Assembly: GCA_043228905.1 (NCBI GenBank)
Contig: JBHGNT010000008.1
Span: 7,750,001-7,814,000, forward strand
DNA length: 64,000 nt
Direction of reading: 5' to 3'
From: Azolla caroliniana
Taxonomy: Eukaryota; Plantae; Polypodiophyta
Positions 41,499-59,799 of the stretch are shown here, piece after piece. A program made the translations under genes and the position numbers. How positions within the stretch are numbered: the first letter of the stretch is position 1; the number at the start of each line of letters is the position of its first letter. The notes below the pieces were generated by a model, which saw only the letters and a program-made list of their open reading frames with translations, was not told the DNA's origin and made no database searches.

Positions 41499-43529
41499 TG
41501 TGAAAAGGACAACGTGCGGAAGCAAGAGAAAGCAGAACATAGGAAAACACAGGTTTAATGGAGAGTTTGGACACACACAGTATGTGGGAGAGAGAGAGAG
41601 AGAGTCAATACACACAACTCTCTTCGAAAAATAATACTCAGTCTATACATAGAATGTGCTCAGTGAGCACTTTTATGCAAGTCCATACAAACTGACAGAA
41701 GTACTGACACGTACTTCAATGCTCATAAATGAGCTCTACACTAACTCCCAAAATATATTCCTACGTGGAATATCTTTCCAATGGCCTCGCGATTTTACGC
41801 ACTGCTACGGCTTCTTGTTGCGCACTGGTTTACGTATCGGTCCGGCCTAATCGATCGGTCCCAACCGATCCGGTTCTCGGCTTGCACAGCCGATCCGGCC
41901 AATGTTGAGCTTGTATCTCAACACTCCCCCTCAAGCTCAACTTGAGGCTCTTCTAGTCCTTCGGGATCATCGCTCCGGTTTCTTCTAGCTTCACGCCTCG
42001 CTCGCGCTCCTTGACCTGTTCGATTCCGCGCGCCTCGACCCTTCCGATCGGCGTGTGTGCTCGTGCGACGCTTCTCAGCTCCCTTTCTGTCGCAGTGTTG
42101 TCGCCTCTTCAGTTGCCCTTTCTTCCGCTTGGCCCTTGGTTGATTCGGCGTCTCCGAATCAAACATCAAAATCGAATCGGTTTCCTCCGATCGGTTTTCG
42201 CTCTCATCCGAGTTGGCTTAATCTCCCCGACGCTTGGCTGGCTTTGGCTCTTTCTTTCGACTGTTGCCCTCACGTCCGCTTTCGAACTCTTTCGCGGATC
42301 CGCCCTTGGCTTCTTCAGCCGACCCGAAATCAAATTCGTCATCCGACTCGGCGCCACAGTCTCTTCCGCTCCTTTCCTGAATTCTCTCCCCCTCAATTTC
42401 GACACATCGAGGTGTCGCAACCCAAGCGCAACCGAGAATTACCGCAACTTGTCGAGACCAAGGGGCTTGGTGAAAATGTCGGCGGTCTGCCGATCCGTCG
42501 AACATACCAAAGTTCGACTTCACCGGAGAGGACACGCTCGTGGACAAAGTGGTAGTGCACCTCAATGTGCTTAGTTCGGGCGTGGAAGACAAGGTTCTTC
42601 GCTAACTTGATGTTGTTGAGGTTGTTGCAGTAGATTGTCGTCGGATCGAACACATCCACGTGCAGATCCTTAAGTAGCCATTTCAGCCAGATGGCTTCGC
42701 ATTTTGCGACAACCGCTCCTCTATACTCGGCTTCGGTGCTCGACAGTGCAACTGTCGGCTGCTTCTTGCTACTCCACGCAATCGCAGCGCTCCCAAGAGA
42801 GAATGTTGTCCGCCGGAATAGTAACCGACGGACAAGAGTGTAGGAATAAGAAATAATATAAGATCATAACGCATGTAAACAGTTCACACAGGAAGTGTGA
42901 ACGGCTAAATAGACCCTGCGTATATAAAGGGCAGAAAACCTCTGATAGAGGTAGCATGTATTTTGGAATGTAAAGAAGCGTATCGTAATAGAATTCTATC
43001 TTCTCTGAAAGTCTGTGTATAGCTATGGCTAATCTACTGTGTGTCTAGAATACCTGAGCATGTAAGAACGTGAGTGTAACCATGTCTAAGGAGTCAGTTG
43101 TAGCCGTCTCCCTTATACACTAATAGGTTACGGGGAACATTCCCATATGCATTACGCATAGACGCCCCATTCGTTGTTCCACAATCATTTGGAGGTCTCG
43201 GTCGAAGGCCTGACCGCAGACCGTGTCCTTAATCGGTAACACTTTTGGCACGCTTGGTGATCTGTGTCTTCTCACACACGAGCAACGACGAATGGATGTT
43301 TAGCCACAGACGCCCCAGAGAACCAACACGACAAGACCGGCCAATCACAAGGTCCGTCACACGCTAGGTAGAGGAACGCGCACGGCAAAAGCCTCACCTC
43401 AGCGACCTCAGTACTACCTGCCGTGATTACAAAGGTGATTCTTCACTCTCCAAATACCTCGATGATACGGGGGGAGCACGCTCACCACCGCCACCCTGTG
43501 GTCTTTCCCAACCCGCCGTAGCCCCCAAC

Positions 43530-46500
43530 ATGGCCTTTGCCTATCCCCGCTTTAACGGCGAAACCGACGCTGCAACCCATATTCGCATGATCCTTAATGT
43601 CTAGAATGTGAACCACATGGCGCAGAGCCTTTCGGAGGCGGTAGCGCACTAGTCGAAAATGACGGAGTACGGGTTAACATTGGATGGGCGAGCGGCGTTT
43701 TGGCATTCACAAATGGATTTACCAACAATCACAACCTTCGATTAGCTGCAGTCCGCTTTCTTGTGGTTCTTCCATCGGAGGGTTCCACAACGCGAAATCC
43801 TCGGACAGTTCTACACGATTAAGCAACTGCCGATCGAGACGATCGCAGACTTCAGCTTACGTTTCCAAAATTTACAGCGGAAACTAGAATGGAGCCACGC
43901 GAAGGACGAGGCTCGAGAGACATTTCTGGCAGCATTACGCCGACCCATCCGGGCAACGCTCAACAACAATGGCGTGAAAGGGGAAACGACGGATATGGTC
44001 ATTGAACGAGCATTACAGCTCGAGTTGCACGACGAGGAGGAAAGGTTTTCTATGTCCTCCTTACGACAAGCGTTACCCCAGGACGAGGAACGCCAGTTTC
44101 GGCAAGCAATCCAGTGCACGATTTACTTGAACTCGAGGCGTTCCGCAGTGGAGTGCAACATGCGAATCCACTGCCCAATCTACCACTCGAAGGATCACAC
44201 AGTCGAACAATGCGAATACAATATGTTGAACAGAGCCACTCCCATAGTCCGCAACATGGACACACAGCGTCCCCCACGCTGTCCTGAACAAAGGAGGCAA
44301 GAAGACCGACCACGGTATATGGATTACAACCCACGGGATGACCGACACCACCGGAATCGCCGAAATCACAACGATTCTGAGGAAGACGAACCAGAGGATG
44401 AGGATTATCATGGACATCTGAGTTATGCTAAAGGGGGCCGGCGCTATGAGAATCACTGGCCGACAAGCAAATGTGGCGGCTTCATTGGTTATCGTGGTAA
44501 GCCACGGCAATATCGAGATCACCGGCGTTACGAGGAAAGCTCGGGAGATGAGCGACACCAAGAACCACAACGGGACCAACAGCAACCACCGCATGCGTTC
44601 TGACAAACAAGGCTAGGCCGTGAGGAGCAAGTCACACCAGGGGATCGGCACACACCACCAGGAGCCGAGAAGGGTGAATCAAGCATCCATTGTTTTATTT
44701 GTCAGTAGCCTGGACATTATGCCACGCAATGCCCAACATGCAAGGGCAAGGGGCCTGCCGTCAATACGATTACGATGGAAGTGTAGCAAGTCACGACACA
44801 CCAGCAAACAAAAACGGTTGATTGGGCTACGCAAGATGAGATACGACGACAAGCCCAAGCATGGGCGCGATCAATACAGAGCACATGCGGAAGGAGTCCG
44901 CGAATGCGAGGGAGCAAGTAGAGGACGAAGGACCGGTCCCGAACCCCATTTGGTAGGCATTAGCGGGCTGCGAGATTACGTTAACCATGGAGAAGTTGTT
45001 GCAGCTAGTCCCACGCTTTCGCCAGACCATGGAAGAACGGGTGACGGGCATACCCGGAGTGAGCGTCGCTACAAACCTTACAAACGTTAGCGACGGACCG
45101 CCAGTAGTGGATCACCACAACCCGGCTATTACATTAATATTACACAGATAGGAAATTCCTGGATGTGTAATTGAATGGCGGCTCAAGCGTTAATGTAATT
45201 AGCGCGAAAACTTGCGAGCAGTTAGGCATTTCAGAATGAGAGGCTTGGCCATTCTGGCTCCGAATGGCAGATACCCGCTCAGTACGACCATTGGGATTAA
45301 TTCGCAAGATAGGCATTATTGTGGGCGGACATCGCTTCGACATCTCGGCGGTCGTCTGAGCCTTGAACACCCCAGGGGCGTACTCAGTGCTTCTGGGCAG
45401 ACCATGGCCTCGAGCAACAAATATCAAGCAGAGCTGGCAACACAAGTGTATCAGTTTCCGACACGGACGCACTAAGGTTCGCGTACCTACGGAAGGAAGC
45501 ACGCCACAACCCAAGGGTATAACACCATTATATGCAAAAGATATAAATATGTTGGCTGGGGTGGAGGATGCAAAATTAGAGGCATACCTAGATGAGCACC
45601 ATTGGATCATTCCGCTGTTCGAAATCGATGTCATCACAACCGCGACAGAATATGCCACAGCCACTATTCTCCACGACGAGGCTTACGAACCAAACCCAGA
45701 TTCCATATTGGAACTCAGCAAAGCATGGGTGGCATTCGAAAGGGAAATGGAAATTTCACGATGAGTCACTGCCTCCGCCCTAGAAGAAGTAAATGTGGGT
45801 ACGGAGTCGGAACCCCGTTTCCTCTCCATCGCAAAGGAATTAAGGCCGGACCAGAGAAACACGATGATCGCACTACTCATGAAATATAAAGATGTGTTCG
45901 CTTGGGCTCACGAGGACATGAAGGGGTTAGATCCCAAGTTCTATCATCATAAGATCAATTTAGCAACCAACGCAAAACCCGTCCAATAGCGTTGCTACCG
46001 CATGAACCCGAACTACACAACCCGCGTAAAAGAAGAAATTGACAAACTCTTGAAGGCGGGGTTCATACGGCCAGTTAAACAAGCCACATGGTTAAGCCCG
46101 ATAGTGGTTGTTCCAAAGAAAAATGACAAAATACAGGTATGCGTGGATTACCGAAAATTAAACGCCGTAACCATTACGGACGCATTCCCTTTACCCTTCA
46201 CCGATAGCGTATTGGACGCCGTCGCAAGACATGAGATGTACAGTTTTTTAGATGGCTTCAGTGGGTATAACCAGGTACGCATGCATCCCGAGGACCAAGA
46301 AAAGACGGCATTTGTCACGGACTGGGGAGTCTATGTGGTAGTCGTCATGATGTTCGGGCTAAAGACGACGCCGACAACATTTCAACGGACAATTACGAAG
46401 ATCTTTGGGGAATACATTCTGGCGTTCATGCAAGTTTTTTTAGACGACTTTGCGATATATGGGAGAACAATAGACCATTTTAGGCACCTACAAATGTGCC

Positions 46501-48641
46501 TAGAACGTTGCCACACCGCATGATGTGCTTTTGGCATGACCAGCGGGACTCTCCTGGGCCATATAGTGAGCAAGGAGGGAATAGTGGTCGATCCGAACAA
46601 GATCTCCGCGATTACGCAAGCCAAAACTCCGTCAAACGCGAAATCACTCGGCCGGTTTTTAGGACAAATACGGTGGCATAGTCGGATGATACGATATTTG
46701 GCGGACTTGGCCACGCCGTTACATGGTGCCGTACATCGAACTCCCTTCCAATGAACCGCAACAGAGGACAAGGCCTATGAGGCACTTAAGATAATGCTCA
46801 CACAGGCCCCCGTCGTACAACCACCAGTTTGGGCGAAGTCATTCCACGTGTTCGTCGACACCTCGGACATGGCAATAGGAAGTGCACTAATGCAGCTCAC
46901 CGAACCAAACTGGTACTGGCCAGTGTACTACACTAGTCGCAAATTATCAACAGCAGAGCGTAACTATTCCACAACGGAGCGGGAGGCGCTAGGGATGATC
47001 TATAGCATCAATAAATTCCGGCATTATTTACTAGGGAGGAAATTCACGTTCCATGTGGATCATTCAGCGTTGCTGTATTTGGTGGAGAAACGAGCCTTGA
47101 CGGGGAAATTTGGCGCGATGGATGCTGCTGCTTCAAGAATTCGATTTCGTAATCCAACACCGACCAGGGATGCAACATGCAGTGGCAAATTTTTTGAGCA
47201 GACTCCAGAATGGAGAAATAGTACAGAAAGATGATGACGATTTTCCGAATGTCGACATCCTACGGGTAGTAGCACTAGCAGAAAGAACGGAATCGACCAT
47301 TCTGGACTAGTGGCTTATGGAAATGACATACTTTTTTACTACGGGACTGCCTCCACCACAATTACGCACAAACGAGAAGAAACGACTAGCCGTCCGAAGC
47401 CGTAACTTCTGCCTTGTAGGAGTTTTATATCACAAAGGAAGTGACGGCATTTGGCGACGTGGGGTACGTCAGGATGAGAAAGAAGCAATTTTACGGGAGG
47501 CGCACTGCGGCACGGCAGGCGGCCATTACGCGGGCGACGTTACAGCCCGGAAAATATGGCAGGCGGGCTTATGGTGGCCAACAACGCTGAAGGATGCATT
47601 CGAGTATTGTAGAAAGTGTGATTTGTGTCAACGGATGGGCCAGCCCACGGAGGGCGCAAGGATGCCACACCAGCCTGTATTACCGCTAGACCCCTTCCAA
47701 AAGTGGGGATTGGATTTTGTAAGCCCCTTCACACCGGCGACAGCCCGTACGAGCAATAAATACATATTGGTAGCTACGGATTATTGCACCAAGTGGGTAG
47801 AAGCAAAGGCATTATGAGAAAATACGACGGTCGTCATAGCCAGATTCCTTTACGAGCACATCTGGTGTCGATTCGGCTGTCCGATTGAGCTCATCAGTGA
47901 CCAGGGGAGTCACTTTCTCAATACGGTGGTTCGGGAACTAACACAACATTACACAGTAGTCCACAAGAAGAGCACGCCGTAGTCCATAAGAAGAGTACGT
48001 CATATTATCCACAGGAAAATGGGTTAACAGAATCCACAAACAAGACGTTGCAGACCATCTTGAAGAAAATCGTCAATGAAAATAGAACGGACTGGGATAC
48101 CAAATTACAGAGTGCGTTATGGGCGTACAGAACCAACTACAAAACAAGCATACAGTCAACACCATTTCGACTAGCGTTTGGACTGGAGGCTGTGATGCCA
48201 GTCGAATTTCAGGTACCCAGTTTGCAGATTCAGGTATGGGACCGACTATCGGAAGCCAAGTCAGAGGAGGTACGACTCCACCAGCTACTCGAACTCGGGG
48301 AAAAACGCGTACACAACATGGTTGTGTTGGAGCAGGAACAACGACAACGTAAAGTGTTTGTGGGTCGACATCGGAACGCAAGGGAAAAGGAGTTCGCCAT
48401 TGGTCGACCGGTGCTGGTTTTCCAAACCCGCATGGGCCATATGCCAAGGAAGTTACGATTCCGCTGGACCGGCCCATACTGGATAATTGGAGCGGAACAA
48501 GGCATGTTCCAACTAGGTACGTTGGCCGAGAAAGTAATATGGCAAAAGGTGAATGGGTTTCGCCTTAAACATTACCTGGGCTCTACGCCACCTCACCCAT
48601 TCACCGCCAAAAAGGATAGAGCCGAAGAACCCGCAGCATAA
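43530..48641 (+). pseudogene. Gypsy gag-pol
   Basis: ORF fragments 43761-48641 with stops and frameshifts. No extra archaeal-type RNase H and no chromodomain seen. Confidence 0.92.
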
Positions 48642-48759
48642 ATGGACGGCCCCACTTGTACCATAATGTAAAAATAGGCTGTATATAACCGTTACGAAAA
48701 AAAAGAAAAAGAAAGAAAGAGAAGATAGCACTATTAAAAGCACCAAATGCATGCACAGA

Positions 48760-51506
48760 CTCCTAGTTCAAGAACACGCGACACCACGATGGCTCACTGC
48801 CCAATGAACTCTAAGCCACAAAAAGAAGAAAATAGAAGACCTTCTGCACAAAACAAAAACCCACCTTCTAACTATCAGCGCTCCCATCGCTCCTCCCCCT
48901 CACCTTCTCCTCCATCCTATCACAGAGCTCCAACCCAACGCAACCACCAGTCTCCTTCCCGCCCCGATCCGCGAAGCACAGGTTAGCGGAGTTAGCGGCC
49001 CCAGAGTGGGAAGAGGAACCCCAACCCGCCCAGCCAAACACACGGGCAGTGCAGGAGGAACAGTCGGCACATTCTATGGAAACAGCCCCAGAGCCAGACA
49101 CCAAAACATGGCAGGATAGCCCCAGACCAAAACGGCGTAGATTGGACAGGAAAGATGGACGGGGATTGGTCAAAGACGTCCCCATGGCAGCACAAACAAC
49201 GACCGAAGGCGATGGCTCCACAACTACGGAGCCCAATAGCATCTTCGAAATCATCCGGGAGCCACAAGTGATCATTACAACCCAGTCCCAACGAGGGAAA
49301 GCCATATTGACAGCGGAAAGCAAGATTTTGGCATATCCAGATATCTTGGATACGGCCCATGAGTTCAGTGCCCTCTTATAGTTCAAAACCTCTTTTGAGA
49401 TCATGAAATTCCTGGCAACACAACAAATAAAAGCCTCCCAATGAATGGTTGAGGAGCACGCGGAGCGCCAGATGATCGAGTGCGCCCTAACACAAACGGC
49501 GGAGAGCGACGATGAGGACCGGCTAGCCAGGGTCGGCAGACAGAGGAACGCCGGGGTACGCCGAGTGAGGATGGAGCTACCCCCATTAAACACGGCCCTA
49601 GTCGAAGTCCATAGGGAACTGGCAAAGGTCAACACGGGCGCCAAGGAGATGGCCATTAAAAATAAGAATGTCTGGAAGAAGGTGAAAATGACCCAAGCCG
49701 AGCTGCAAAAAGCCAACGAACGCATCGCGGAGTTGGAAGCTATCCGCCACCAAACCACGACATCGACGCTTTGAAGGAAGAATTTGAGGCTCAGACCGCC
49801 ATCGCCTCAAAAGCGAAAAGGGTCGTGCAACTAGCGGGATCAGAAATTAACCGCCTTCGAGCTGAACTGCGCCAATCCTCAAACAAAGAAAAGGAGATCC
49901 AGGCTAATGACCGGAAGGCAGTAAAAACCCTTGAAGAGAAACTCGCTACAGAGGTAGCTCAGCACATCCATACAAAAGACGAAAACACCCAATTACGGGA
50001 TGAAGCGAAGAAATCAGAGGCGGCAATCGTGGGACTCTAGGCCTTATTAGAGAAAAAGAAGGTAGGGTTCGACGAGCAGTTGATGGTCGAACAAGAAAGA
50101 AGGCATCAGCTCGAAATCCGCCTAAACAATGAAATGGGGAACTTAGAAGAACAACACGCAAAGGAATCCTAGTTGTGGGCGGGCTTGAAGACCACGTACG
50201 AAGAAGCGGCGGCGGTTAGGCAGCAAGAAATTGCAAACCTCCAGAAGTCGATGGAGGATGCACGCAACCGTTGCCAGGCCATCACAGACAACGTGCATAT
50301 CCTTCTCCAAACAAATCGGGAGAGGTTCATAGCGCAATTGAAAATGACGTTGGACAAAGGATGGATGGCGTGGGCAACCCAAGCAGCGGAATTGCACACG
50401 TATCGTGCGGACTCGGAGAACCGGCGAAAAGACGACCGAGGTTTCTATAAACTAAATGAGGAGAGCATTGCGACCGTACACAAGGACCTAGCGCAAGACT
50501 ATCGTGCGCTAGCGGACAAACATTTCGAAGAACTCGCGCAGTTCTTATATGATTTTGGTGAAAACCAGGAGGAGTTATTTCACCAGATCACACAAGCCGG
50601 CAACACGCGAACCAATGAGGAATCCAGCGCAATGCCAATTCTGGGCATGGCCGAAGAAGAGGAACCTCGTGCCAGATCACAAGAAATTACAACGGTGAAC
50701 AACGCGGATCGACGAGCAGAGTCCCCCACAGTACTAGACAGAGAAACCACTGCCCAAGAGGAGCACCATTCGCAGGAGCCCACGCTATCGTCGAACCACA
50801 CGGAGAACAGTGTGGTCCAGGTGGAATCGCAACCCCACTCCCTGGAACGTACAAAGATAGCTGACACAAGGACCTAGCGCAAGACTATCGTGCGCTAGCG
50901 GACCAACATTTCAAAGAACTCGCGCAATTCTTATATGATTTTGGTGAAAGCGAGGAGGAGCTATTTCACCAGATCACACAAGCCGGCAACACGCGAACCA
51001 ATGAGGAATCCAGCGCAATGCCAATTCCGGGCATGGCCGAAGAAGAGGAACCTCATGCCAGATCACCAGAAATTACGACGACGGTGAACAGCGCGGATCG
51101 ACGAGCAGAGTCCCCCACAGTACCAGACAGGGAAACCGCTGCCCAAGAGGAGCACCATCCGCAGGAGCCCATGCTATCGTCGAACCACACGGAAAACAGT
51201 GCGGGCCAGGTGGAATCGCAACCCCACTCCCTGGAACGTACAAAGACGGTTGACACCATTGAGGAAGTAACGATTGAGACAGAGCCGCGGATGACCGCAA
51301 GCATGACGACGGCGGAGCCCAACCCACTAGCTCAAGAAGAGCCCACCATACCCGGACCGCCCACACACGACGACTGCGACACCGAGAGAAACCATTCCGA
51401 CCAAACAGGGGAGCCACACCACGATGCACCAACGGGCCCTACGTCGCCTCCGGACGCGGACACCGTAGCAGAGCCAAACATCCGGGCCATTTTGGAAGAA
51501 GATTAA
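48760..51506 (+). pseudogene. Accessory ORF: disordered N-terminus, long coiled coil, conserved unknown domain, acidic tail
   Basis: Fragments 49049-49774, 49771-50877 and 51018-51506; internal ~386 bp tandem duplication (50478/50864); homologous to 4823-6068 and 16394-16716. Confidence 0.8.
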
Positions 51507-51510
51507 CGGG

Positions 51511-51551
51511 ATGGGTCCAATGTGCTAGGGCACTATTCCACAGGCGTGCCA
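51511..51551 (+). other. tRNA-3'-half mimic ending in CCA at the PPT position
   Basis: ATGGGTCCAA-tGTGCtaggGCACta-TTCCACAGGCGTGCCA, then GG, then the LTR start TGTTG. No purine tract. Confidence 0.72.
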
Positions 51552-52698
51552 GGTGTTGTCCGCCGAAATAGTAACCGACAGACAAGAGCGTAGGAATAAG
51601 AAATAATATAAGATCATAACGCATGTAACGGTTCACGCAAGAAGCATGAACGGCTAAATAGACCCTGATAGCTACGGCTAATCTATTGTGTGTTTGGAAT
51701 ACCTAAGCATGTAAGAACGTGAGTGTAACCATTGCTAAGGAGTCAGTTGTAGTTGTCTCCCTTATACGCTAATAGGTTACGGGGAACATTCCCCTATGCA
51801 TTACACATAGACGCCCCATTCATTGTTCCCCAATCATTTGGAGGTCTAGGTCGAAGGATTGACCGCAGACCATGTTCCTAATCGGTAATAGAGAACGGGA
51901 ATCCGGATGTGGATCGGCGATCGCCGGCGTTTCCGGCCCAATCAGTATCGGTGTAGCCAACTAACTGTGCAGCAATATCGGTCTGATATAGTAGCCCCCA
52001 GTCTTTAGTGCCACTGATGTACCGGTGTCGTGAAGAAAACCGCCCACAAGAGGAATCGGAGGAACAAGGCGTGGGAAACGGCTCTACACACACGCGCGCC
52101 AAGAAGTACATACGAGGATCCTAGGTGGGTAGATTCGGTTGGTATGCAGTTAATGCCAAACGGCCTCTTGACGGGATATAAAAAGGAAGAGGAAGAATAG
52201 GAAAAGATATCTCGCGGGGGGAGAGGACGAAGTGCTGCCGAACCGATTTCGGAGCTCCTCTCTCACTCCTGCTTTCTCTGTCTTCTGCTCCATCGCGTAC
52301 CTGTGCAGGTTTCGAGGAGGCTTGCGCTGTTCCGTGGAACGCCCCGAGTGCGTCCTGCAGCACCTCCGACCTGTTTCCCTTTCTGTGCGTCGCAACATAC
52401 AGGGGTCGGCATCTGTTCGCCGCCCCGTTCGTTTTCGTTAGTATCCATTCCGTGCCCCGCCGTGGGTTGTAATTCTTTGGTCTGTTATTTTCTTGCATTC
52501 ATAACATATCTTTCGTTGTTGCGTCCATCTGCGTCGGCGTTTGTTTGTGATCTCCGTTTGTTGGGCCGTGTCCCTGTGCAATCTTCGGTTCTGTGTAATC
52601 GGGTCTCTCTCTTACTCCGCTCTCTCTTGCTCTTTGGTCCAAGACCCCCGTGGTCCCTCCTCCTTTCTGCACGCAAGGGCGTAGCAACCCCGACATCT

Positions 52699-52716
52699 TG
52701 GTGAACCCGACGTGAA
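52699..52716 (+). promoter_or_regulatory. Primer-binding site for tRNA-Trp
   Basis: TGGTGAACCCGACGTGAA is complementary to the plant cytosolic tRNA-Trp 3' end (TTCACGTCGGGTTCACCA, recalled from memory). Confidence 0.85.
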
Positions 52717-52738
52717 AGAGGCGGCAGAAGAGCAGGAA

Positions 52739-54865
52739 ATGAGGGGGTCGGATCTCGCAGAGGCCATGGCTTCGGCCGTGGATCGGATTGTAAACGCGCG
52801 CGAGAGCACCGGTGCCCTCGACAGAGCTATTGAGGCGGTCGTCGGCACGATCGGCCGGTTCGATGGGAAAGATGCCACGAAGTATTTGGCGTCCTACGGT
52901 GCAGAGATGCTGATGCGGGACATTCCGGAAGAAAGGCGTCTTGCCGGATTTCCCCGAGTAGCGATGCCGAGCATCCATGCGGAGGTGCTCGAGGTGCGGA
53001 CGGAGAGCCGTACCTGGGAGGAGTTCGAAGGTCGGCTCCTAGAGAAATACGGGCTGGACGACGCGCTCCGGCTTTCGAAGCGAAGGTTCATGGAATGGGT
53101 GGAGTCCCCGGGGAAGGGAAGAAACGCGTCGGCGCTCCTCCGGGAGTTCGAGGAAAACTTTGCGCGCCTTTCGGCGCTCGACCGAACCATCCTGGACACG
53201 AGCCGGGTCTTGCTGTTTGTCAAGTCGGTCGACGAGCGGGATCGGGAGCAAGTGGGCTTCTTGCTGGAGACCGAAGACGGGCTCACTACCGACTGGGCGG
53301 CTGTCAGGAAGGTCTGTGGCCGTTTCGACAAACGGCGAGAATGGGCGGATAACGGGGCGACCGGGTCGGGCTCGGTCGCAGCAAGGAAGCTCGAACCAGC
53401 GCCGCAGGTGCGCAAGGAAGAGACCCGGGAGTGGTTGGAAACCGGTTCGGCTTCGACCGGCGTAGTCAGAGGCTCAACCGGAGGAGAGGCGCTGGAGGAA
53501 TTGACGAAGGCGATAAAGGACCTCCAAATCGCGCAGGCCCGAAGGAAAGGAGGCGAACCGGCTCGTGACCGACGGCCGGCGGCAGGAAACAGGTGCATGT
53601 GGTGCGATGAAGTCGGCCACATTCGGAAGGACTGCGGCGACTTCGCGGAGGCGCTGAGGAACAGGGTGGTGTACCTGTGGGAAGGACGGGTGCATGCCAG
53701 CGACACCCGAAGGGCCCTGAGCCGAAACGACGGAAAGGGTGGTATGAAAAGGGTGATGGAAGAGGCGGCGGCCCGACACGCGGAAACAGTCCACTACTCG
53801 GCGTCAGCCGGCATTCGAGTCGGGGGCGGCGAGGCCCGGGGGGAAAGCAAAGCCGGATTCTGGCCGACGATGCTGGAAGGCCTTGCCGGTGCAGGGCTTA
53901 AAAGGGAGGAATCGGACCGTGCGGAGAAACGGGTACGGGAGATGACCGGGTGGAGCGACCCGGTCGAGGAAAAGACGGGCTTCGTGGAAGCCGCTTGCAG
54001 GAACTACGAGGCTCTGGTAGAAGAGAAGCGGGTGGGGAAACCCGGGACGACCGGGCCCTCACAACGATACGAGACCCGGTCCGGGCCACGACGGGACGAA
54101 GCCGGCGGGGCCGGTACGCGAGATAAACCCCAGAAGGGCGGGTATCGTCTGGGGACGGAGATAGAAAGAACCACGGACTTACGAAAGGTCCTGGAGGAAC
54201 GGATCCTCGACAGCAAGGTGGAGCTGTCGTTACGAGAGGTGCTGGGAATCGCCAAGAAGGAGTTCCACGACTCCATCGTGGACTTGGTGAAACGGAAGAG
54301 GCTGTCGACGGAGACAGAACCGGAAAGACCGGTGGAAGTGCGGACGACGCACCTAGACGACATGGCTCTGGGAGACGAGTGGGCGGAAAGCCACTATTCG
54401 AGACCACATTGGGCCCGAGCGACCACGGAAACCCCGGTGAAGATCGGCGATGTCCAGGAACCGGTGGTAGCTTTAGTAGACCACGGATCGGAGATCAATT
54501 TGATGTCCATGGACTTCTATAAGAAGGGCAAATGGCCGATCAACACCAAGCACGGGTGGAAAATAAGGGCAGCAACGCGCGCCACCGAGGAACTGCACGG
54601 GGCCTGTCCGAACGTGCGAGTCAAGATCGGCGACGTTGAGATTGACCAGCACTTCTTCGTGCAGGAGACGTCTTCGCATCCGGTCATTCTGGGAGAGCCG
54701 TACATCACGGCGGCGCGAATGGAGACCAAGGTGCTGGACAACGGTTCAGCCTATGCGCGGGTCAAGAGCCAGGACGGGCGCCATTCGGTCCAGTTTTTGA
54801 CGGTCAGGCCGAACCACGAGCGTAACCGCGACTCCCTCGGTTCCGATAACCGAGAGGATTTTTAG
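52739..54865 (+). CDS. gag: Gag-protease polyprotein
   Basis: Open frame from ATG 52739; CMWCDEVGHIRKDC knuckle; aspartic protease ALVDHGSEIN...VILGEPY. Confidence 0.93.
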   Translation: MRGSDLAEAMASAVDRIVNARESTGALDRAIEAVVGTIGRFDGKDATKYLASYGAEMLMRDIPEERRLAGFPRVAMPSIHAEVLEVRTESRTWEEFEGRLLEKYGLDDALRLSKRRFMEWVESPGKGRNASALLREFEENFARLSALDRTILDTSRVLLFVKSVDERDREQVGFLLETEDGLTTDWAAVRKVCGRFDKRREWADNGATGSGSVAARKLEPAPQVRKEETREWLETGSASTGVVRGSTGGEALEELTKAIKDLQIAQARRKGGEPARDRRPAAGNRCMWCDEVGHIRKDCGDFAEALRNRVVYLWEGRVHASDTRRALSRNDGKGGMKRVMEEAAARHAETVHYSASAGIRVGGGEARGESKAGFWPTMLEGLAGAGLKREESDRAEKRVREMTGWSDPVEEKTGFVEAACRNYEALVEEKRVGKPGTTGPSQRYETRSGPRRDEAGGAGTRDKPQKGGYRLGTEIERTTDLRKVLEERILDSKVELSLREVLGIAKKEFHDSIVDLVKRKRLSTETEPERPVEVRTTHLDDMALGDEWAESHYSRPHWARATTETPVKIGDVQEPVVALVDHGSEINLMSMDFYKKGKWPINTKHGWKIRAATRATEELHGACPNVRVKIGDVEIDQHFFVQETSSHPVILGEPYITAARMETKVLDNGSAYARVKSQDGRHSVQFLTVRPNHERNRDSLGSDNREDF

Positions 54866-57800
54866 AGAGGACTGCCAAGGCGTGGGGCCGCGACAGTCCG
54901 GATGCTCCGGGAAAACCCCACATTTGTACGATAAAACCGTGTACGACAGGTAGGGTATTTTGCTTCTCCGACAGCGGAGCGTGTACGATAGTCGGCATCG
55001 GCGGCCGAGAGAAGACAAAGGCGGAGGGGAGACTTCGAGCGTGCGGAGTTCTCGGCCCTGACGAGGAAATCAACGGAGCCGTGGAGGCGGTTTCATTCGA
55101 CGACACCTTGGGAATGCTGGGAAAGGTAGTCGAAGAAGGCCTTAACGAAGACCGGACGATACCGGTGTGTTCCGAGGAGATGTACGGAGTCATCGCGGAC
55201 TTCGGTCGAGGGCTCGAGTCAGTTCGGACGGCCCGCGTAGGCACCAAGTACAAGACTGTGGACCGGAAGGTAAGGCCAGTCGCGGCACCCTTACCGGAGG
55301 ACAGCGCGTCGAGAATCAAAGGGGTTGCATCGGACCCTAGTCTACGGGATCCGGCCTGCATAGGGCACACCTTCACCGACGAGACGCTCCGAGAGCTCAA
55401 AATAGGTGGGGGCGGGTTCCTACTGCCTGCGGAGGAAGACCGGTTTCGGAGAATGCTCGGAAGGCACGGGAAAGCCTTCGCATTCTCGCCGGAGGAAATC
55501 GGGTGCGTTGACCCGACGATCGTGGAGCCGATGGTGATATTCACGGTACCGCATGTACCATGGAATCTCAAGCCAATCCCGGTTCCGAGAGCTCACATCC
55601 CGAAGTTGATGGAGCTGCTGAGGCAGAAAGTTGATATGGGAATTCTCGAGCCGTCGAGCGCCCCATATTCGAATCGATGGTTCACCGTACCGAAGAAAAA
55701 CGGTTCGTTGCGCTTCATCCAGGACCTGCAGCCGGTCAATCGAGTGACCATTCGGAACGCAGGGATCGGACCGACCATAGGCGAGTTCGCGGAGGCCTTC
55801 GCCGGAAGGTCAATTTACTCGGTCGGGGATCTATACTCAGGGTACGACCAGTTCCAGCTAGCCGTGGAGAGCAGAGACATTACGACGATGCGAACTCCCC
55901 TCGGCCTAGTTCGGATGTGTACACTGCCGCAAGGAGGGACCAACTCGGTGGCCCACATGGTGAATGCGATGAACAAGGTTCTGAGGGACTGTATCCCGGA
56001 CATCACCATGCCGTTTCTGGACGACATTCCGATCAAAGGATGCCCGGTGGAAGAAAGGGACGAGACGATCGGGCCGGACGGATGCCGGCGATTCGTAGCG
56101 ACGCACATCGACGACTGCGAGAAGGTGCTGCAAAGGCTAGAGGATGCGAGACTCACCTTCTCCGGGGAGAAGTCGGCCTTCGGGCAGTCAGAAATCATGG
56201 TGGTCGGACACCTGTGCGGACCATATGGCCGGAAACCGTCTCCGGCAAAGGTAGAAGCCATCTCCGCGATGAAGCCCGACTGCAGCTCGGTCACGGAAGT
56301 ACGGAGATTCCTGGGGGCATGCGCGTTCTACCACATATGGATCCCGCATTACGCACACGTCGCGGAGCCACTGTACGGGTTGCTGAAAAAGGGGCGAAGG
56401 TTCGAATGGCTGGACGAGCACGCGGAATCGGTCCGGAAGCTGAAAGAGGCCCTCGCAGCGGCACCGGCACTCCGGAAGGCGGTATACGGGAAGGGTACCC
56501 CGGTATTCATAACGGTGGATACCAGTCCGACCGGGATCGGATGGGTCGTGAACCAGGAAGACGAGGACGGCGATCGGTTTCCGATCCGATTCGGCGCGAA
56601 AGTCCTCAGTGAACGGCAGCGAGGATACGCCCAGGTTAAACGCGAACTCTGGGGTATTGTTTCGGCGGTTAAGGCCGACAAAGACTACCTGATAGGGACA
56701 GAAGTGATCATCGAGACGGATTGCCTGCCGATTCTCGGTATGGTTTCCGGATGCGCGACTCCGGACCTGGCGATGCTCAGGTGGATAGCGTACATCAAGT
56801 CCCTGGACCCGGAAATACGACACATTTCCGGGAAAGACAACGCCATGGCCGACATGCTTTCGAGGGCGAGGTTCGACGACGAGGGCGGCATGGTTTCGGA
56901 AGACGAAGAAGTCGGCGTGGATTTCTTCGAGACGGCACACATAACGACCGACGGGATGAGCACTCCGGCGCTTAACGAGTTCGACGCGAGCAAGTACGAC
57001 GGGGAGTGGCTGCAGATCGGCGGGTTTTTGAAGGCAATGACGCCCGATGCGTCATGGACGAAGGACGAGGCCAACCGGATCCGGAAGAAAGCATACCGAT
57101 TCTTTCTCCGAGATGGGCATTTGTGGAAGCACCCGAAGAAGAGGAACGGCGTCCCGCTCCGGGTGGTGGCGATGAAGGAAGAACAGGAGGAGCTACTGGC
57201 GGCCCACCACGACAGCCCTTGGGCTGGACACCGTGGAACGTGGGCGACATTTGAGAAGCTGAAGGGGAAGTACTGGTGGCCGGGATTGTACCGGGACGTG
57301 CATCGGTTCGTGTCAACTTGCGAGAGTTGTCAGATGCACTCGATAGTCCGACACCGGGACGGGCTTCGCCCTACGTACCCTCCGACTATCCACTTCAAAT
57401 GGATGGTAGATCTGGTAACGATGCCAATGGGGGTAGGACAGATGCGGTATCTGGTCCTAGCGCGGGAAGACCTGACGAACCAGGTGGAAGGCCGAGCCCT
57501 TCAGAACAAGACGACCGCGGCCGTGTGTCGGTTCCTAATCGAGGACGTGATATGTCGGTACGGGTGCGTCGGGAAGATCGTGGCTGACCGAGGGGAGTTG
57601 GACGCCGAAGAAGCCGCGGAGCTGTTCGACCGGCTGGGGGTCAAGCTCTCGCTCACCACTGCGTACAATCCGGAGGCGAATGGAAAGGTGGAGCGCGGAC
57701 ACGGACCGATCGTCAAGGCGTTGGTTCGGGCATGCGGAGGCCGAATCGGTGACTGGCCGCGGCTCCTACCTTATGCCTTGTGGGCAGACCGGACCACGCA

Positions 57801-58344
57801 CAGTTCGGTAACCGGGTACATGCCGACAGAGCTCATGTTCGGCCAGAAGCCGATCATGCCGATTGAACGGACGATCTCCTCGTGGGCAACGGTCGACTGG
57901 AGGAACGAGATGAGCCGGGAGGAGTTGTTGGCCGCGCGTATACGACAGCTCGAGCGGAGACCGGAGGACGTGGCACTGGCTACGGAGAAGCTCCGGGTGG
58001 CGAGGACAAAGAACAAAGCCCGGTTCGACCGAACGCACCGGCTACGACCGAAGAAAATCGACGAAGGTGACTGGGTGCTCGTGTACGACAGCAGCCTCGA
58101 CAACCAGCACCGAGCAACGCGGAAGTTCGCACAGAGATGGTTCGGGCCGTACACGGTACAGAGCGCCAACGACAACGGGACATATCATCTGGCGGAACTC
58201 GACGGTACGAGAATAGCGATACCCGTGGCCGGGAAGAGGATCAAAGCTTTCAAGAAGCGGCACGACAACGAACCCGACCCGATTCTCCTGGACAGCAGCG
58301 ACGACCGATCCGAGGCCGAGGAAGGGCCGGCAGGCGAAGAGTAA
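54850..58344 (+). CDS. pol: RT-RNaseH-integrase, in the -1 frame, probably reached by ribosomal frameshift
   Basis: Frame open from 54850 (after TAA 54847-54849) to 58344; WFTVPKKNGSLRFIQDL, FLDD, VDTSPTGIG, HDSPWAGH/CESC, DRGE, NGKVER, WFGPY. Confidence 0.95.
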   Translation, partial: PRGFLERTAKAWGRDSPDAPGKPHICTIKPCTTGRVFCFSDSGACTIVGIGGREKTKAEGRLRACGVLGPDEEINGAVEAVSFDDTLGMLGKVVEEGLNEDRTIPVCSEEMYGVIADFGRGLESVRTARVGTKYKTVDRKVRPVAAPLPEDSASRIKGVASDPSLRDPACIGHTFTDETLRELKIGGGGFLLPAEEDRFRRMLGRHGKAFAFSPEEIGCVDPTIVEPMVIFTVPHVPWNLKPIPVPRAHIPKLMELLRQKVDMGILEPSSAPYSNRWFTVPKKNGSLRFIQDLQPVNRVTIRNAGIGPTIGEFAEAFAGRSIYSVGDLYSGYDQFQLAVESRDITTMRTPLGLVRMCTLPQGGTNSVAHMVNAMNKVLRDCIPDITMPFLDDIPIKGCPVEERDETIGPDGCRRFVATHIDDCEKVLQRLEDARLTFSGEKSAFGQSEIMVVGHLCGPYGRKPSPAKVEAISAMKPDCSSVTEVRRFLGACAFYHIWIPHYAHVAEPLYGLLKKGRRFEWLDEHAESVRKLKEALAAAPALRKAVYGKGTPVFITVDTSPTGIGWVVNQEDEDGDRFPIRFGAKVLSERQRGYAQVKRELWGIVSAVKADKDYLIGTEVIIETDCLPILGMVSGCATPDLAMLRWIAYIKSLDPEIRHISGKDNAMADMLSRARFDDEGGMVSEDEEVGVDFFETAHITTDGMSTPALNEFDASKYDGEWLQIGGFLKAMTPDASWTKDEANRIRKKAYRFFLRDGHLWKHPKKRNGVPLRVVAMKEEQEELLAAHHDSPWAGHRGTWATFEKLKGKYWWPGLYRDVHRFVSTCESCQMHSIVRHRDGLRPTYPPTIHFKWMVDLVTMPMGVGQMRYLVLAREDLTNQVEGRALQNKTTAAVCRFLIEDVICRYGCVGKIVADRGELDAEEAAELFDRLGVKLSLTTAYNPEANGKVERGHGPIVKALVRACGGRIGDWPRLLPYALWADRTTHSSVTGYMPTELMFGQKPIMPIERTISSWATVDWRNEMSREELLAARIRQLERRPEDVALATEKLRVARTKNKARFDRTHRLRPKKIDEGDWVLVYDSSLDNQHRATRKFAQRWFGPYTVQSANDNGTYHLAELDGTRIAIPVAGKRIKAFKKRHDNEPDPILLDSSDDRSEAEEGPAGEE
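54856..54921 (+). promoter_or_regulatory. Predicted -1 programmed frameshift signal (G_GAU_UUU + stem/pseudoknot)
   Basis: Heptamer 54856-54862 directly before TAG; 6 nt spacer; stem GGACTG/CAGTCC; loop GTGGGG can pair with CCCCAC at 54916-54921. Confidence 0.75.
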
Positions 58345-59799
58345 AGGCGGGCCGGTTTTCTCCGTGCCAACTTAATTTGGCGCATACCGGTGGATGCGCG
58401 GTTAGGTGGGGGCGGATGTCGTGAAGAAAACCGCCCACAAGAGGAATCGGAGGAACAAGGCGTGGGAAACGGCTCTACACACACGCGCGCCAAGAAGTAC
58501 ATACGAGGATCCTAGGTGGGTAGATTCGGTTGGTATGCAGTTAATGCCAAACGGCCTCTTGACGGGATATAAAAAGGAAGAGGAAGAATAGGAAAAGATA
58601 TCTCGCGGGGGGAGAGGACGAAGTGCTGCCGAACCGATTTCGGAGCTCCTCTCTCACTCCTGCTTTCTCTGTCTTCTGCTCCATCGCGTACCTGTGCAGG
58701 TTTCGAGGAGGCTTGCGCTGTTCCGTGGAACGCCCCGAGTGCGTCCTGCAGCACCTCCGACCTGTTTCCCTTTCTGTGCGTCGCAACATACAGGGGTCGG
58801 CATCTGTTCGCCGCCCCGTTCGTTTTCGTTAGTATCCATTCCGTGCCCCGCCGTGGGTTGTAATTCTTTGGTCTGTTATTTTCTTGCATTCATAACATAT
58901 CTTTCGTTGTTGCGTCCATCTGCGTCGGCGTTTGTTTGTGATCTCCGTTTGTTGGGCCGTGTCCCTGTGCAATCTTCGGTTCTGTGTAATCGGGTCTCTC
59001 TCTTACTCCGCTCTCTCTTGCTCTTTGGTCCAAGACCCCCGTGGTCCCTCCTCCTTTCTGCACGCAAGGGCGTAGCAACCCCGACACCGGAGTACGCGTT
59101 GTGCGCACTGAAGGTGCTTCTCGGTTGGCCGCACCATGAATTGACTAATCACACCCATCGGGTAACTAAGGTCTGGTCGAGTGATAGTCAAGTAGATGAG
59201 GTTTCCGACAGTCTGTCGGAACCTCTTCGAGTCACAAACCTTTCCAGAGTCCGGGCGAAGCTTAACGGTTTTATCTAGAGGAGTCGAGACAGACTAACAA
59301 TCTGCCATCCCGAACTTGAAGAGCATACCCAGTACGTAATGTTGTTGGTTGATCAGTATGCCTTTGGGGGTACGATCACTTCAATCCCAAGGAACTAATG
59401 AAGGTCCCCTAGGTCCTTCATGTCAAATGATGCCGCGAGCTAGAGCTTTACGCGGTCAATTTCACCTAGGTCAGCGCCGGTGATGACCAAGTCATCAACA
59501 TAAAGTAAATTACTAACCAGCCCGAGTCGACCTTGCCGAATGAACAGTGAAGAGTCTGATTTGGACATCAAAAATCCCAACCGACGCAATCGCTACGTGA
59601 TTTTCGCATTCCAAGTACGCGGGGCTTGCTTTAGTCCGTAAAGGGACTTCTTCAACCGGCAGACCGCCGAAGTGTTCATTCCGGAGTGAAATCTAGGGGG
59701 TTGTACTATGTACACCTGTTCCTCAAGCTCGCCTTGCAGAAATGCATTCTTGACATCCATCTGATGTAAATGCCACCCCTTCGCCGCAACTACTGCAAG

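Follow-up and report, generated by a model that had tools for sequence, protein, structure and literature searches.

The window, a 64,000-nt stretch of DNA from Azolla caroliniana, holds a Ty3/gypsy LTR element of 9.1 kb (42804-51890; Table 1). Several marks of the group are present (LTRs of the TG...CA type, a target site duplication or TSD, and a primer binding site or PBS), and one usual Ty3/gypsy feature, the polypurine tract (PPT) before the 3' LTR, is absent. At that place stands a motif (51511-51551) that aligns to nt 49-76 of the host tRNA-Arg(UCU), CCA included. The two LTRs are identical in 308 of 337 alignment columns, the accessory ORF ends in a stop codon at 51504-51506, and the gag-pol frame is unbroken in young related families. 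The host site of the insertion is the RNase H region of a Copia element (42393-42863 on the minus strand, and beyond 51895). Another Ty3/gypsy element, young and belonging to a different lineage, occupies 52026-59086; its 670-bp LTRs are identical, its PBS is TGGTGAACCCGACG, which we take to be of the tRNA-Trp type, a G-rich tract stands in front of its 3' LTR, its pol frame has 1164 aa and its gag belongs to DUF4100.

Table 1. The Ty3/gypsy element of the window and its parts (window coordinates).
Feature	Positions	Strand	Remarks
TSD, left	42799-42803	+	GAGAA, 5 bp; within the Copia RNase H region (minus strand)
5' LTR	42804-43241	+	TG...CA, 438 bp
Spacer and minus-strand PBS	43242-43259	+	CTTT spacer, then PBS at 43246-43259
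PBS	43246-43259	+	TGGCACGCTTGGTG; complements the last 14 nt of host tRNA-Arg(UCU), CCA included
gag-pol region	43746-48641	+	gag, RT, RNase H, integrase; several broken frames in the window copy
3' accessory ORF region	48872-51506	+	broken in the window copy; internal duplication present
Sense copy of tRNA-Arg(UCU) nt 49-58	51511-51520	+	ATGGGTCCAA; 5' T-stem strand and T-loop
Insert, 14 nt	51521-51534	+	4-bp hairpin, GTGC 51522-51525 / GCAC 51530-51533; between tRNA A58 and G59
Sense copy of tRNA nt 59-76	51535-51551	+	ATTCCACAGGCGTGCCA; one C fewer, CCA end; its minus-strand DNA complement is the proposed second PBS
Family-specific spacer	51552-51553	+	GG; separates the LTR from the proposed end of the primer
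3' LTR	51554-51890	+	337 bp, ~100 bp less than the 5' LTR; TA at its end
TSD, right	51891-51895	+	GAGAA

Pfam matches in the window copy cover RT, RNase H and integrase, and an intact relative has gag, zf-CCHC, RT, RH and IN in that order; in intact relatives a DGGSG motif marks the protease, for which Pfam gave no match. The 1943-aa polyprotein has no chromodomain by Pfam (E 0.1), and a Pfam search run without a dedicated aRH profile found no second, archaeal-type RNase H (aRH) such as Tat elements carry. An accessory ORF of ~1000 aa (L165 66-3104, minus strand; 48872-51506 in the window) is common to the clade and best conserved in its C-terminal part, and has no Pfam match at E 0.1. In an RT tree of 79 rows the motif-bearing elements form one clade (support 100/97) of 20 rows, which include four database proteins and one nested copy whose 3' ends were unseen. 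This clade lies inside a 67-row group whose branching is unresolved and which also takes in proteins of angiosperms, Riccia and Adiantum, in a tree built without labelled Athila references. Its sister proteins show 64-69% RT identity; the nearest named proteins, from Riccia, Adiantum and angiosperms, stand at ~40-47% over RT-RH-IN, and by RT the elements group with proteins from liverwort, fern and angiosperms that are 43-58% identical to them.

Plant Ty3/gypsy elements other than chromoviruses make up the OTA superclade, with Athila and Tat (Neumann et al. 2019, PMC6317226). Like the OTA elements in the main text of that source, ours lack a chromodomain and have a forward extra ORF at the 3' side, a 5-bp TSD and a non-Met PBS, tRNA-Arg included (PMC6317226). 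In contrast, most OTA elements are described there with a PPT upstream of the 3' LTR and that text describes no tRNA copy, and, unlike Tat, the Azolla clade shows no aRH and its motif-bearing members stand as a clade of their own. The extra ORF, the missing aRH, the non-Met PBS and the 5-bp TSD are Athila-like without being unique to Athila.

A tRNA-like motif at the 3' LTR

The sequence-only reading had taken the motif for the 3' half of a tRNA-Arg(UCU), CCA included, and the genes of the same genome confirm the tRNA end that it had assumed: host tRNA-Arg(UCU) genes terminate in GTGGGTTCGAGTCCCACC(AG/AA/GG)GCGTG. Among 33 distinct 3' segments of host and organellar tRNAs, an incomplete set of 13 isotypes, Arg(UCU) scored highest against the window motif, and the window copy's score was attained by 2 of 2000 shuffled sequences, that of a sibling copy by 0 of 2000. 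The hairpin that the same reading had placed in the T-loop lies exactly between A58 and G59, and one C is missing at 65/66. The window copy departs from its siblings at three tRNA-like positions. ARAGORN found no tRNA gene in the window and there is no cloverleaf; upstream of the motif there is no 5' acceptor strand, and hence no tRNA-like minihelix. Variants of the motif without the 1-nt deletion, with A at the C66 position, occur in L421-L424 and in the single copies L405 and L420, and in L421-L424 the T-loop reads GTTCA. In L433, L443, L452 and L453 the hairpin, or the T-loop and hairpin together, is deleted at short repeats. Tandem arrays of tRNA-Arg(UCU), tRNA-Lys(UUU) and tRNA-Ile(UAU) genes lie on C11 (~693-703 kb), C22 (~1.43-1.50 Mb), C5 (~17.99 Mb) and C2 (~20.11 Mb).

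Across the genome the core motif pattern matches 3,178 times and the full pattern from T-loop through insert to CCA 901 times, with no match to either reversed control. All 30 loci retrieved with a query containing the motif (best 40 of 1223 candidates scored) carry it. A motif-blind search with the LTR only, again of 30 loci, found it at 13 of 13 3' LTRs, one of them shared with a downstream PBS and one the window's own; the remaining loci were ten 5' LTRs with an Arg PBS, five solo or unclear cases and two that were unreadable. The 189 motif matches in the sampled loci fall into 61 clusters defined by their flanks. At positions left free by the search pattern these clusters agree with one another to a high degree (T50 79%, G51 97%, G52 97%, G53 92%, T60 97%), and the 20 nt upstream of the motif are conserved at 31-48% only.

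The hairpin covaries, with changes on both sides in 23 cells against 8.1 +/- 2.0 in shuffled alignments, a value reached by none of 500 shuffles, in a set of 34 distinct rows with a 13-nt insert whose relatedness inflates the statistic. The T-stem shows no covariation in the same rows, but here the search pattern had fixed the 3' strand of the stem.

The earlier observation that no purine tract precedes the 3' LTR holds in the window and equally in young families: the last 20 nt have a purine fraction of 0.35-0.55 and no purine run longer than 6. Young copies with TSDs and LTRs 99.5-100% identical have the motif and no PPT, and three of four that were translated have gag-pol frames of 1943-1987 aa and retain the D-E-D residues of RNase H. 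Throughout, the CCA end lies 2-4 nt before U3. A PPT further upstream was considered and rejected, the end of the accessory ORF being purine-rich in some families only and T-rich in others. The motif is also kept in a non-autonomous family of ~2.6 kb from LTR to LTR (L428, L429; Arg(UCG) PBS, 4-nt TATG spacer), which fits a signal required in cis.

In a metagenome scan we found at least 122 motif-bearing stretches, of which 105 among the matches listed align to Azolla loci, nearly all at 66-90% identity and one at 97.5%; given this range they come from a related host. In a run labelled organism B, contigs stack on the motif far above its flanks (such contigs show neither ends nor expression). 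The viral contigs searched contained neither the motif nor a relative of the sister protein P0004, and the motif was traced in this genome and close relatives only. Within that range the motif is, as far as comparison of copies can tell, a real, selected, clade-wide feature.

Host tRNA joined to U3 ends

In standard reverse transcription the left end of the 5' LTR is completed when the minus strand copies plus-strand strong-stop DNA, so that sequence standing before a 5' LTR tells what was attached to the 5' end of that DNA. Real tRNA and motif can be told apart by the extra C, absent from the motif, and by the hairpin, absent from the tRNA. Searches for tRNA-type junctions gave 13 exact matches and 85 with one mismatch, of which 22 loci were examined, the rest being already covered or having PBS-type spacers in the match table. 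After PBS-side joins and two unassigned loci were dropped, eight independent tRNA-type junctions at U3 ends remained, all in faulty insertions; L187 and L414 are excluded from this count, as are L186, L189, L190, L194, L399, L415 and L416, where the join is at the U5/PBS side in a family whose PBS spacer is 2 nt long, and L417, which resembles them and has no library match. At these junctions the match to tRNA-Arg(UCU) runs for 57 nt (L183-185), 63 nt (L188), 56 nt (L387), 16 nt (L195) or 18 nt (L191/192, L193, L392 and, from the window's own family, L412), L188 and L195 being complex. Each retains the spacer of its own family (TG, GG, AG or the 4-nt TATG), and the GG of the window element is retained in L188, L195 and L412.

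Five of the eight junctions (L184, L191/192, L193, L387, L392) precede a 5' LTR that is followed by a PBS, in complete elements whose own 3' motif differs from the junction sequence; in four of the five that PBS is for a different tRNA, Arg(UCG). A perfect TSD encloses the whole insertion at L191. In the same locus (1031-2450) the 5' LTR stands three times in tandem within one TSD, with spacer, 18 nt of tRNA and AG between the copies. The region around L184 is locally duplicated, and the history given for it is a reconstruction; the acceptor variants in L392 and L195 are matched by no host gene seen. Copying of a tRNA halts after 18 nt at m1A58 (PMC13191261, main text), and the exactly 18 nt of tRNA found in four of the eight junctions correspond to that stop. 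A control search for motif-type sequence without the usual T before GT gave 26 matches, 22 ordinary 3' motifs and four internal deletions, none of them a motif-type junction before an LTR with a PBS; this partial control is weak, being blind to run-offs that contain the hairpin and having a filter that only two of the five tRNA-type 5' junctions would pass. For Trp elements, which bear a PPT, five of 30 matches were checked and all five were ordinary PBS sides of related families. The junctions support one role that the sequence-only reading had offered for the motif, that of a second PBS on minus-strand cDNA.

The element's own RNA might be the primer instead. The motif RNA, a structured tRNA mimic surviving RNase H and cut after its CCA (perhaps through the specificity that removes tRNA primers), would then act like a PPT, and the tRNA junctions would come from template switching. 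We consider this improbable. Its CCA end is located where a PPT would end, in some families the sense RNA can fold into a T-arm-like stem with an inner hairpin, and chimeras (L161, and L085 and L091 described below) show switching at the motif site. In L161, real tRNA from the D-loop to A58 is fused onto the element's hairpin, as expected if the tRNA pairs with nascent minus-strand DNA at nt 49-58, and the fusion also shows that template switching occurs. The junctions are few, and switching from the motif onto a co-packaged tRNA could have made some of them, L161, L188 and L195 being complex. However, the junctions before 5' LTRs are tRNA-type in five of five cases and motif-type in none, the RNA without a 5' acceptor strand offers no minihelix resembling a tRNA, and the T-stem departs by mismatches only (for example G53A against a fixed C61, in a pattern that fixed the 3' strand). 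Moreover, each junction would need a second rare event within ~10 nt of homology. What stands of the earlier suggestion of a structured, RNase H-resistant RNA primer is the structured insert; a priming role for it is disfavoured by 5' junctions that are all tRNA-type.

The usual primer might also be an 18-nt 3' fragment of the tRNA (tRF-3) rather than the whole tRNA-Arg(UCU). A length of 18 nt fits tRF-3 as well as it fits the m1A58 stop, and four of the eight junctions have it exactly. Three junctions, however, reach 56-63 nt into the tRNA, and the conserved match to nt 49-58 would not be needed by an 18-mer, so we regard this reading as very unlikely.

The minus-strand primer

Thirty-four PBS copies extend to real tRNA-Arg(UCU) sequence, compared with none that carry the complement of the motif. 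Of 15 PBS-side copies retrieved, 12 match the tRNA for 18-19 nt and three run for 58-76 nt. Other families have a PBS for the host tRNA-Arg(UCG), whose genes (L196, L198) were located with a PBS-derived pattern, and their 3' motif is still Arg(UCU)-like. The 90 matches to Arg(UCG)-CCA-LTR all have spacers of at least 5 nt, and none has the 2-nt spacer of U3. Judged from these copies, the minus strand is shown to start from an ordinary PBS, with Arg(UCU) or Arg(UCG) as its primer. Self-priming of the Tf1 type was rejected, as the PBS copies match host tRNAs for exactly 18 nt and no PBS is derived from the motif; L423, a candidate for one, is actually a head-to-head fold-back. Such fold-backs are centred on LTRs or the PBS (L423 1589-2300, L199, L195).

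The tRNA-templated PBS copies vary at tRNA positions 67-68 (AG, AA, GG, GT, AT, GA, CG, CT); some of these variants match no host gene seen, and misreading or heteroduplex repair is possible. L085 and L091 (~1500) are chimeras: after the 3' end of the element with its hairpin come 18 nt of genuine tRNA, then AAAG, then U5 in antisense. They suggest that plus-strand strong-stop DNA can anneal wrongly, through its PBS copy, to the sense motif.

The 3' end of the motif had been described as a near reverse complement of the element's own PBS, and in the window's family the two are indeed near-complementary (duplex of -32 kcal/mol), so that one might suppose that they pair to circularise the RNA, to regulate priming or to self-prime the minus strand, with plus-strand priming elsewhere. 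This we find hardly credible. Where young families have an Arg(UCG) PBS, their motif is still that of Arg(UCU) and the two pair poorly (-17 kcal/mol), and pairing explains neither the absence of a PPT nor the junctions at U3. The motif is thus independent of the PBS that its element carries, which disposes of circularisation and of self-priming; the proposal of a PBS-pairing element that circularises the RNA is contradicted by the same families and by the lack of motif complement in PBS copies. Just as implausible is a motif with no priming role, be it a neutral remnant of tRNA captured long ago or a B-box for Pol III: GTTCGA is indeed the B-box core, and tRNA cDNA is demonstrably captured beside these LTRs, but the motif is conserved across families of 66-90% DNA identity while its flanks diverge, its hairpin covaries, the insert interrupts the B-box and no other plus-strand primer is visible.

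Proposed tRNA priming of the plus strand

The reading that we favour, with a probability of roughly 0.8, is that the motif forms a second PBS on minus-strand DNA, from which the host tRNA-Arg(UCU) primes the plus strand. With a shade more reserve we also think it probable that the whole active clade has dropped the PPT and has both cDNA strands primed by tRNA, several families using Arg(UCG) for the minus strand and Arg(UCU) for the plus strand on a DNA site split by a hairpin.

Once RNase H had cleared the RNA, tRNA nt 59-76 and 49-57 would pair with the minus strand, C65/66 being bulged and the hairpin looped out beside m1A58, and reverse transcriptase would extend the CCA end of the tRNA through the spacer and the LTR. 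Normally the tRNA would be removed and integrase would trim the spacer; where it was left in place, the minus strand would run on into it, as far as m1A58 (18 nt) or further. RNA parameters served as a proxy in co-folding, which predicts a three-way junction, at -43 to -56 kcal/mol for Arg(UCU) compared with -29 to -40 kcal/mol for Arg(UCG). More speculatively, the bulge and hairpin may split the RNA:DNA hybrid into short pieces spared by RNase H, and they may weaken the sense motif as a decoy for the PBS copy. It speaks against the reading that a tRNA paired with DNA is a substrate for RNase H and that the enzyme of the clade retains its D-E-D motif; how the primer would survive is conjecture.

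In Ty3 (PMC5371799) and HIV-1 (PMC13191261) the plus-strand primer is an RNase H-resistant PPT encoded by the element itself, and in the main texts of four sources (PMC5371799, PMC13191261, PMC6894440, PMC6317226) the PPT is either the plus-strand primer or the usual 3' feature. The Azolla elements resemble Ty3 and HIV-1 as described there in their tRNA-primed minus strand, the 18-nt stop and a plus-strand primer that ends just upstream of U3. They differ in that a PPT is missing and that the evidence indicates a host tRNA, sitting on a DNA site, in its place. A likeness in form is the bipartite PBS of Ty3 and Ty1 (PMC5371799, main text), where two segments that lie apart, in Ty1 with a small internal loop between them, are bound by the acceptor stem and the T-arm of one tRNA; acceptor stem and T-arm would likewise pair with two split segments here. 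In the RNA of Ty3 and Ty1 these segments complement the tRNA, and their role is in priming the minus strand (PMC5371799). The Azolla motif, unlike these, has the sense of the tRNA, so that only minus-strand DNA can pair with the tRNA. HIV-1 also holds a tRNA-Lys3-like sequence, in U3-R, which pairs with the tRNA at the RNA level and aids minus-strand transfer; HIV-1 keeps its PPT, and what the two have in common is a sequence related to a tRNA close to the 3' end of the retroelement's RNA.

Departures from standard priming are known, among them self-priming in Tf1, Tcn1 and TAR and the use of half-tRNA primers, but as given in the main text of PMC6317226 these concern the minus strand and none replaces the PPT. 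In the literature, judged mostly by titles, the openings of abstracts and main texts, we found no tRNA-primed plus strand and no tRNA copy in place of a PPT. The Azolla elements are likely to represent a new variant of Ty3/gypsy replication, the new part being the proposed route of plus-strand priming.

PPT priming of the plus strand is treated as a rule for retroviruses and LTR retrotransposons. If our reading is right, a successful and recently active clade with thousands of copies would truly break it by priming from a tRNA that is annealed to DNA. That would raise the questions of how an RNA primer that is not purine-rich escapes RNase H, whether PPT and PBS are interchangeable and how one particle recruits two tRNAs. 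Annotation tools that demand a PPT will miss or mislabel such elements. The elements themselves would depend twice on the tRNA-Arg pool of their host.
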